A DNA stretch of 64,000 nucleotides from an uncultured Methanosarcinales archaeon (GTDB lineage Archaea; Halobacteriota; Methanosarcinia; Methanotrichales; Methanotrichaceae): assembly GCA_963843555.1 (NCBI GenBank), contig CAWJKV010000006.1:32001-96000 (forward strand), written 5' to 3'. Positions 39,001-42,000 of this stretch are shown here, in pieces. Numbering within the stretch: position 1 is the stretch's first letter; every line of letters begins with the position of its first letter. A program made the position numbers.

Positions 39001-42000
39001 TCTGTGGTGGACACATGACTGAGCAAAATCGCAAGTATGTAACGAAAGAGATCGGCAAGCTCCTCTCGGATATCTGGCGGATCAAAGGTCTGGCGGAGCA
39101 AGAATACGGCCCACATCACCCCATCACAAAAAAGCTCGCCAGCATGCATACCGATGCTCAGGAATTGCTGCAGGAAAAATCTGGAGCCCCTAATCGGTAG
39201 ATCTACAAAGTTGGCCCTCGTGGCTTCATCACATCCATCTGCGGCGTGATTCCGGCAGAATCTTCTTTCAACCGCAAACTACAAATATCTATAACGATTA
39301 TATAGATAGTTTGCCGCTTCATGCAAGGGGTGGCGGGCGTGTCGTGGGCTTAACCAGGCCGATAATGCTCTGTTGGCAAGGCTGATTTGATCGCTGTCCC
39401 TCCGGGGGGCGGCTTGCGGTCGCTTACAGATCAGATCGCTTCCTTGTTCCAGGAGATGCATGTCGTCGTGGCACTGCATTCGGGCTTGAGAGCCTGTGAG
39501 ACTGAAACTTCGGCAACAAAAAAAGTTGCGCACTGTAACAGGTGCAGTACTCTGTCGAAGGATCTCGCGCTAATACACGACCGGGGCATGTTGCGGCACA
39601 AAGCCAAGGCGAGAGGCGAGCGTGAGGCCCAGTGAGTTCGGGTTCCTAATTTGTGGACGCTGTGTTCGATTCCAGTGCGAATGCCGCCTGTTGGCATAAT
39701 GTCAAGCTCCGGGCAGGGCCAGGTCATCACTTCGGTGAGCGGCTCCTCTAAAAGGGCGCTGTGGATTTCGGCGCTGGCCCACCTGAGTATCGCTTATGCT
39801 GTTCTCTGTCTTTCCCTTTGATGATGACGATTCTTGCTCTCGATTCTTCCCTAGTCGAAAACCTTAAATATAGACAATCGACGTATAGAATCTAGGCGAA
39901 AGTCGACGGCCTATTTTCTCCCTCCTTCATCCTGATGACTTTTGCCTCCCTCCTTCTTATCGATCCAACACTTCATGATGTTCATTGCATCCGATTTCAT
40001 CCTCAGATTCTCGAAAGAAAGGCTTAAAGGCCACCCCGTTCCTTCAAGAACTCCCGCCTTGGGTGCATTCACAATATGACTATGGCGGAGAATATGGGGA
40101 GTGACCCTTCCACCCGGGAGAGCTTCTGTTTCCTTGAGATCTCCTGAACCTCAGCCTCAGTGTTCTGTGAAAAGGCGGACAGCTCTCCTATCGAAAAAGA
40201 GCGACTTCTGGCCTGGCACACCTCTCGGCCTGGAAATGCCCGGGTCTTCAAGAATGGCCTTTTTCAATCCCTAGCTTCTTCCGAAAATCTGCGGCGATGC
40301 CTCGGCTCGCATGGCCCTTTTTGAAGCAGACTTCTGGATAAATGGTGAGCCACATGATTGATCAGGAAGTGATTTGAAAGACCATCGTTACCTCCTCTTG
40401 TTAACTGTAAGAAAAGCGTCCCGACCGGGATTCGAACCCGGGTTGAAGGCTTACTGCGCCAAAAGTGCTCCGCAGGCCTCCGGGATGTCCACTACCCCAT
40501 CGGGACAAAACATCCCTCATGGCATGCTTCAGGTTATTAAGCTTGTTGGCTTGTCACTCTGGTCTGCGCTGTCCGGATGGCTCTCAGAAAGTCGATCTTT
40601 CGAAATTCCGGCCAGTAAGGCGCACAAAAGTACGCTGCGCATTCATTGCCGTTGGCCTGCCAGGGCAGGAAGTTGGAGGTGCGAAAATCCCCTGCCGTCC
40701 TGATGATCAGATCCACTTTGGGCACGGCAATGCCATCCTGAGGATAGAGATGCTGAGCAATCAGCTCCTCGTCCACCTCTCGGGCCTTGATCTTTCCCTG
40801 CTTAACCAGTCGCGCCAGCGCCCGCACGGTGTCTACAAGCTCGGGCTGGCCGCCATAGGCCAGGGCTATATTGAGATACATCTTCTCGTAGTCTCGCGTG
40901 GCTTCTTCAGTGCGAACAATCTCCTGTTGAAGGTCCTCGGGCAGCATCTCCACTCTGCCGATAGCTCTCACCCGTACTCTGCTGCCGTGAATCTTTTTGG
41001 AACGATTAAGATCTATGAACTTCCTCTTGATCAAATCAAAGAGATAACGCTTCTCTGCCTCTTCCCGGGCAAAGTTCTCCGTAGAAAAGGCATAGAGGGT
41101 GAGATGCTTGACGCCCACCTCCAGGCACCAGTCGGAGACCTTATCCGAGGTCTCGGCGCCAAGGCTGTGGCCGAGAAACTTGGAGAGGCCTCTTTGCATG
41201 GCATACCTGCGGTTTCCATCCTGAATTATGGCCACATGCTCCACAGGCTCTCCGGCAAGAATCTGGGCCATAAGACGCCTTTCATAAAAGGAATAGGCAG
41301 GGTTTCTGAAACTGAAACTCATTCATTTTATTAACTTCGCGAATTAGTATTTAAATAATTCCTCTCTGCCAGGCGGAAAATGGCCCGGAGATTTTCCTTC
41401 TAGGGCAAGATACTAATAGCTGATGACTTACTTCCTTACTCCGGGGGCCTGTGGTCTAGCTGGTTATGACATCGCCTTCACACGGCGGGGATCACGCGTT
41501 CGAATCGCGTCGGGCCCACTCACATTATTGCTCGACACAAGCTTTAACTATTTAAGGGTCATTTTTAGCAGCGATGGTGCAGAAGGTTGCTTTGGTTATT
41601 CAGGGCAGAATGCATCTCTAGAGATGTCAGACGGCCCGATGATTCCAATAATCTTTAGGTCCATAATTATTATTTGAGGTGATAAGCTGTATAATAGAGG
41701 TCGTGGAAGGGAGGAAGAAGGGGCCGTAATAACAAGGGTCCGCCTCCCTCGCAAACAGGATAGAGAGATATTTGGTCATGTAGAAAGCTTGCTTGGCTCC
41801 AATCGCATAAAGGTCAGAGGCATAGACGGCGTAACCAGGATGGCCCGCATACCCGGCAAGATGAAGAAGAGAATATGGATCAGAGAGGGCGATGTGGTCA
41901 TAATTATACCCTGGGACTTCCAGAATGAGAAGGCAGATGTAGTCTGGAGATACACAGGTCCCCAGGTGGACTGGCTGCAGCGCAAAGGGTTCCTGAAAGG

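Follow-up and report, generated by a model that had tools for sequence, protein, structure and literature searches.

Modular Structured RNAs and a Companion Small RNA in Methanotrichaceae: An Apparently Undescribed Archaeal Family

The intergenic stretch 39265-39830 of the window (the whole 64,000-nt piece of contig analyzed here, along which positions without a contig name are counted) raises the question of what kind of gene recurs, in diverged form, in the genome of an archaeon of the Methanothrix family, whose members are acetate-eating methane makers. It is rare that a new class of large structured RNA comes to light, and those discovered earlier proved to act as ribozymes, as scaffolds for proteins, or as cages made of RNA; in the accessible portions of the literature considered, such ornate classes are bacterial, whereas the RNA described here is archaeal. 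On comparative sequence evidence, the element is very probably a functional noncoding RNA, and the family of large modular archaeal RNAs to which it belongs, together with its companion small RNA, is real, under selection, and apparently undescribed.

The Locus and Its Copies

The extent of the large RNA follows from the alignment of its copies and from covariation, and its strand from the promoter, the UUCG loops, and a T-loop:
39309..39790, + strand: large structured noncoding RNA of subtype A, about 480 nt

Regarding its copies, an earlier note had named four in this genome, and the three besides that of the window are indeed present, being 84% (C5:123544-124248), 86% (C5:226485-227033), and 72% (C12:41125-41644) alike to it. 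The count was too low, for the genome holds six full copies (on contigs C6, C5 (two), C12, C14, and C8) and four fragments; eight places are found with the model of the 3′ module, and further fragments, on C2 and C18, came from profile searches. The element at C14:5675-6197, formerly taken as partial, is a complete copy of another subtype. Directly behind the C2 fragment, there are tandem 15-base repeats (L199:2500-2750, that is, G000:C2 about 182150-182250).

Indels of 1, 2, 4, and 5 nt occur throughout the alignment of the copies; since such frame-breaking changes are common, the element is not coding, as had been claimed. The reported lack of an Rfam family holds as well: a scan of 38000-41500 at E ≤ 10 returned only the tRNA and two chance matches, and 41 further loci of several subtypes had no Rfam match (E ≤ 5 or 10). 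By blastn, all 59 genomes of the genus match, own genome included, which bears out the genus-wide presence, and so do 81 of the 105 genomes of the order. The window copy, folded alone, is no stabler than its shuffles (z −0.45; 35 shuffles in 100 did equally well); therefore, all the structural evidence is comparative.

Promoter and Ends

Two features frame the RNA, the first recognized by its conserved layout and the second, inferred, by its sequence:
39271..39308, + strand: dedicated promoter, with a BRE-like element (39271-39278), a TATA-like element (39279-39287), and a family-specific motif (39291-39300)
39800..39819, + strand: U-rich tail, a likely terminator

Of the earlier description of these parts, the promoter and the U-rich end stood, while the placing of the TATA box and the first helix did not, the likely TATA being that at 39279-39287, behind the BRE-like element. 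This 38-base upstream block, with BRE, TATA, and family-specific motif, is common to all subtypes in the same layout; the spacing between TATA box and start is established knowledge for archaea, and it places the predicted start of the large RNA near 39309. A promoter matrix built without the copies of this genome put five of its RNA copies on top (20-51 bits, the next site having 13 bits) and missed the C12 copy; the same scan did not find the motif before other genes of this genome, and a shared regulon was rejected. Also rejected was a role of the promoter palindrome as a recombinase site, because its arms have no covariation and the conservation extends past it. Similarity between copies runs from about −48 to about +500, or to +650-690 with the companion RNA.

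Architecture of the RNA

The RNA is modular; helix P1 closes a 5′ domain, and the 3′ part, in which one junction duplicates the other, is optional:
39312..39598, + strand: 5′ domain, closed by P1 (39312-39324 with 39586-39598), with P2 to P9 and two three-way junctions inside (complement search, covariation)
39327..39337, + strand: G-rich loop that resembles a Shine-Dalgarno sequence and stays unpaired between P1 and P2, seen in subtype A only (90 of 95 subtype A copies)
39525..39550, + strand: P9, a hairpin that has a bulged A and a loop of GUAA type and is retained more widely than any other piece (E < 0.05 for two of its pairs)
39615..39688, + strand: junction 1 of the 3′ module, a closing stem and three arms, with a 7-nt T-loop (39665-39671) on the third (pair counts, tree-aware test)
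39711..39784, + strand: junction 2 of the 3′ module, an internal duplicate of junction 1 (profile score)

The first helix is P1, a long-range helix of 13 bp; in an unbiased search, the best complement of the 5′ end lies at its 3′ strand in some 72 of 94 copies, by a count made by eye. P1 shows compensatory swaps among copies, five of its pairs reach p < 0.01 in the tree-aware test, and the short forms of the family stop immediately past it. On the present alignment, RNAalifold preferred a local 5′ hairpin, with none of its 11 pairs changed on both sides. As for the G-rich loop, a search for a pairing partner found none; a four-codon frame behind it was rejected, being intact in about 56 of 95 copies and explained by helices P2 and P3. 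P9 is kept in subtypes A and B and in the 160-nt form, and it is altered in subtype C and in some short forms.

In the 3′ module, the T-loop has the consensus Y-N-A-R-A-U-U; of 115 seven-base loops, 112 have A as their fifth base, and the pattern fits 139 of 164 copies. Junction 2 scores above 10 bits against the junction-1 profile in 37 of 106 cases, a value reached by none of 530 shuffles. Across 60 diverse copies, 86.3% of the 3187 cells of the 3′ structure are paired, and both partners have changed in 31 of its 55 pairs, where shuffles give 22.8; each of five near-complete genomes holds 2-5 of these modules.

Covariation

Because the shuffle control ignores kinship, alignments were simulated on the tree to obtain a tree-aware null, home-made and other than R-scape; the real alignments were built without structure, and the same family was the source of the helices, which were drawn by eye. 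Pairs at p < 0.01 numbered 13 of 72 in the 5′ domain of subtype A (95 sequences), 5 of 54 in subtype B (53 sequences), and 9 of 55 in the 3′ module (164 sequences), the background for other column pairs being 0.6-0.8%. Covariation is above this null in all three modules, which upholds the reading as a structured RNA. Singly significant pairs are few (E < 0.05 in 2 of 72, 0 of 54, and 3 of 55, respectively), as in an earlier tree null on smaller alignments (2 of 69 and 0 of 55), and plain mutual information on the alignment was noisy. No covarying pair was found outside the nested structure (best E > 1), and therefore no kissing loop is seen. The loops and junctions that hold the conserved bases are of kinds typical for tertiary folds, and the same helices are retained across very different sequences and lengths.

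Subtypes and Range

At least four subtypes exist, with differing 5′ sequences on a common plan, and there are also forms without the 3′ module. The length is not uniformly about 500 nt, as once thought: members measure 160-500 nt, natural sizes that mark a minimal core. Among the hosts of the family are cultured organisms of environmental weight. The 160-nt form, present in 6 of 7 genomes of genus g14, folds alone (z −2.75). Subtypes A and B co-occur in genomes of several genera, and the paralogues are therefore old or widely spread.

The proposed confinement to Methanothrix and close kin proved too narrow, with members in 14 of 16 Methanotrichaceae genera, but in the genomes searched none occurs outside the family. 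The genera without members are g4 (2 genomes; one blast match at E 0.0099, unchecked) and g16 (3 genomes). In model searches outside Methanotrichaceae, which scored filtered candidates only, the 3′ model matched one of the 50 genomes of the class and two of the 146 of the phylum, each time within a protein gene, and the 5′ model matched 0 of 54 and 0 of 146, respectively. Rejected as members were L249 (Methanosarcinaceae), antisense within an open membrane-protein frame that we take to be an archaeosortase, and L548 and L549, inside protein genes. The bacterial pattern matches, among those listed, were rejected for absent profile support (≤16 bits), with the exception of L340 and L660. The copies L340:760-907 and L660:1-447 lie on contigs of 2.9 and 1.6 kb in Dehalococcoidia and Syntrophomonadaceae bins, and these contigs are probably mis-binned Methanotrichaceae DNA.

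Selection, Copying, and Mobility

At the level of sequence, the RNA is more conserved than neighboring synonymous sites, which indicates purifying selection. In subtype C, the RNA is 80-85% and the promoter 89% identical, against 60.5% at the four-fold sites of the adjacent Hsp20 gene (9 loci, 36 pairs), and subtype A copies behind DUF1699 are 89% identical, against 75% in DUF1699 (22 loci); the nearest orthologue of the window locus is too closely related to discriminate (92% against 89%). Two copies of genome G050 are 98% alike in different flanks, while the G010 copy in the same flanks is 94% alike, which indicates recent duplication or gene conversion.

The mobile element suggested earlier finds no backing in the ends of the unit: neither target-site duplications (longest flank repeat of 4.8 for own against 4.9 for random flanks, 86 copies) nor terminal inverted repeats of MITE or IS type were found. 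Subtype C and the 160-nt form have fixed chromosomal neighbors across species; many copies sit in plastic islands with integrase, ParA, and defense genes. Two IMG/VR contigs bear full subtype B copies, one copy lying between integrase and ParA, and neither the 50,697 phage records nor the 72,556 plasmid records searched contained a match. The ParA partner on an IMG/VR contig (L190:4080-4868) contains many 14-residue repeats. Within 1 kb of a tRNA gene lie 15 of 153 copies, against 3.5% at random, many of them representing one orthologous locus.

Neighboring Genes

Around the window copy, the protein-domain and neighbor survey and ARAGORN gave the following:
37771..38532, − strand: ParA-type ATPase
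38890-38979: nucleotidyltransferase remnant
39015..39200, + strand: 61-aa protein with no match to a Pfam family, part of a recurring upstream cluster
40416-40506: tRNA gene, 91 nt, called Arg (GCG) by ARAGORN but Ser with the intron option

The remnant and the ParA gene mark a plastic island beside the tRNA gene, which is possibly intron-bearing and has no att repeat on this side of the contig. The same island includes genes for a HicB-like antitoxin and a PIN-domain toxin (35173-36376), the PIN gene being short (98 aa).

The recurring cluster consists of an HTH and nucleotidyltransferase pair, the 61-aa protein, the chromatin protein MC1, a divergent 77-aa protein, DUF1699, the large RNA, and the small RNA, to which a short integrase and ParA are sometimes added; it looks like an undescribed family of integrative elements. 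At L557:7044-10756, L559:261-10889, L561:7166-10045, and L562:2206-10073, the nucleotidyltransferase is of the DUF6036 type, and ParA and a tyrosine recombinase of 194 aa lie close by. Among 128 elements with limited flanks, the neighbors were the 77-aa protein (24), DUF1699 (22), MC1 (14), the 61-aa protein (12), integrase (5), and ParA (2), and no protein gene was obligate. The 77-aa neighbor occurs in 45 of 104 family genomes and is often broken. DUF1699 is present in 197 of 201 Methanosarcinia genomes, at 1-19 copies each, and no large RNA lies behind 30 Methanosarcinaceae DUF1699 loci; the protein was rejected as the partner of the RNA. Its structural model (pLDDT 85) has an alpha/beta domain and a helix-turn-helix, with no clear fold match; from this model, the protein (for example, L017:2210-2644) would be a candidate binder of the promoter motif. 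Of the papers found to name it, none has a title that concerns archaea.

The genes expected of a retron, a HEARO/omega RNA, or a bridge RNA (reverse transcriptase, IscB/TnpB, IS110) are not recurrent near the 128 elements; one IS605 OrfB fragment lies near one copy (41 proteins scanned). Nor do the downstream genes point to a riboswitch or cis-leader, as they vary in kind and strand, with Hsp20 following subtype C only.

The Companion Small RNA

Behind the large RNA, a second gene is predicted:
39857..39965, + strand: companion small RNA gene, with its own BRE/TATA (39857-39870) and a predicted RNA at about 39895-39965

This RNA of about 65 nt forms one stem-loop, and CUCCCUCCUU occurs at 39918 within the loop and again at 39946 within the tail; these motifs are anti-Shine-Dalgarno, and the loop resembles the 16S end of this genome. 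It stands behind 88 of the 159 large-RNA copies with room downstream, and this genome has 10 copies, 3 of them behind large-RNA copies. The small RNA of the window has no Rfam match, and its pattern occurs in 65 of 99 family genomes and in 0 of 101 other genomes of the class; it would thus be a second new RNA family, limited to Methanotrichaceae in the genomes searched.

Relation to Known RNAs

In outline, the new family seems to resemble the bacterial ornate RNAs while belonging to none of them. GOLLD and ROOL are likewise large, junction-rich, and of unassigned role; the Methanotrichaceae RNA differs from them in being archaeal, in having no Rfam match, no visible pseudoknot, and several paralogues with a dedicated promoter, and, it seems, in being mostly chromosomal and rarely near a tRNA. 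GOLLD and ROOL genes lie in phages or prophages, often close to tRNA islands. According to the accessible parts of the sources, OLE RNA is a protein-binding scaffold (PMC3413148), and the raiA motif RNA carries a T-loop (10.1101/2024.12.08.627333); both are lineage-restricted structured RNAs with their own transcription (here predicted), whereas the present RNA matches neither model and has no fixed partner gene adjacent. The covariance models of GOLLD, ROOL, OLE, and raiA gave no match in the window or in the 41 loci (E ≤ 5 or 10).

T-loop hairpins also occur in the FMN riboswitch, tRNA, and RNase P, and the FMN aptamer is made of two-fold repeated halves; the large RNA shares the T-loop and the two-fold repeat, but its arm order differs, it has no downstream gene to control, and it lacks an Rfam match. 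It is not the RNase P or SRP RNA, the genuine copies of which were located at other sites in all five genomes, and it shows no Rfam match to group I/II introns or self-cleaving ribozymes; the gene has its own predicted promoter and terminator.

Among the intergenic RNAs of methanogens, sRNA154 and sRNA41 of Methanosarcina mazei mask ribosome binding sites, by the accessible text of PMC5867862, and this mode of action fits the companion small RNA; the structure of the large RNA is much more elaborate than that of these two or of sRNA162, neither new RNA has an Rfam family, and the small-RNA pattern is found in 0 of 86 Methanosarcinaceae genomes. No published description of the large RNA was found in the full-text literature, a scope with subscription papers largely outside. 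The COMPASS preprint clustered all GTDB intergenic regions (10.64898/2026.10.21.760802), and therefore its database or supplements may contain the family unnamed; the string "methano" is absent from the portion of its text that is accessible.

Possible Function

By analogy with GOLLD, ROOL, and OLE, the RNA might be an RNA-only assembly that oligomerizes into cages or dimers. Its size, T-loop, GNRA-like and A-rich loops, and duplicated junctions would suit this, as would the conserved 3′ and variable 5′ part that GOLLD likewise has (accessible text of 10.1101/2024.12.08.627333); however, the lack of a visible kissing loop, the members of 160-300 nt without the 3′ module, and the tRNA within 1 kb of only 15 of 153 copies make it unlikely. 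Fixed chromosomal neighbors of subtype C and the 160-nt form, the low counts of integrase (5 of 128) and ParA (2 of 128), and phage and plasmid records without a match also argue against a cargo of integrative elements or proviruses (antitoxin, anti-defense, or maintenance) later kept by hosts; this origin, to which the IMG/VR contigs with full subtype B copies and the recurrence of the cluster with integrase, ParA, and the nucleotidyltransferase-HTH pair point, is rather improbable.

A ribozyme, either of a new class or remodeled from a known one, was among the options raised earlier, and size, complexity, and many invariant bases would agree with it; yet no sign toward catalysis emerged, none of the Rfam scans, of the window locus or of the 41 others, returned a ribozyme, the gene stands alone without exon context, whole domains are lost down to a core of 160 nt, and RNase P and SRP RNAs are present separately in 5 of 5 genomes, which leaves it with little probability. 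We give as little credit to a base-pairing regulator or sponge, for instance for the companion small RNA: the two are linked (88 of 159), and a duplex of the G-rich loop with the small RNA can be drawn on paper, but this loop is absent from subtypes B and C, and cognate duplexes reach −17.1 kcal/mol (51 pairs) against −16.8 for non-cognate ones and −17.0 for shuffled loops, so that pairing between the two RNAs, no better than in shuffles, was rejected. Finally, a selfish non-autonomous element, MITE-like or retroposed, would explain the sharply defined limits of the unit (−48, and +500 or +650-690), the fragments, and the G050 copies 98% alike in different flanks; with low copy number, selection above synonymous sites, stable orthologous loci, and neither target duplication nor inverted ends, it is highly improbable.

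The preferred reading, to which we give nearly an even chance, is that of a host-encoded scaffold or decoy RNA that binds a protein or the ribosome. Such an independently transcribed host RNA would act by binding, without catalysis or self-movement: in the P1-closed 5′ domain, the conserved P9 hairpin and the junctions would form the surface on which a protein or the translation machinery docks, tertiary or RNA-RNA contacts would come from the T-loop module where present, and several paralogues with one dedicated promoter motif would give a high, coordinated dosage. The core that survives the size changes consists of P1, one inner helix, and P9, which makes a docking site likelier than a catalytic center. 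The nearby anti-Shine-Dalgarno small RNA, MC1, DUF1699, and (in subtype C) Hsp20 suggest the damping of translation under stress or in stationary phase, a role that we regard as possible but doubtful.

A more specific and unlikely version is a two-RNA shutdown module, in which the large RNA would bind or cage ribosomes, with contacts through the Shine-Dalgarno-like loop and the T-loop domains, and the small RNA would mask ribosome binding sites, including that of MC1, which the same cluster encodes; if true, acetoclastic methanogens, and thus archaea, would have a hibernation system based on RNA and maintained in many homogenized copies. The MC1 leaders are, as a lead from target prediction, candidate targets of the small RNA: for the window copy, two of them rank 3 and 6 among 2575 predicted genes, and for the other small-RNA copies, the best MC1 rank goes from 11 to 569.
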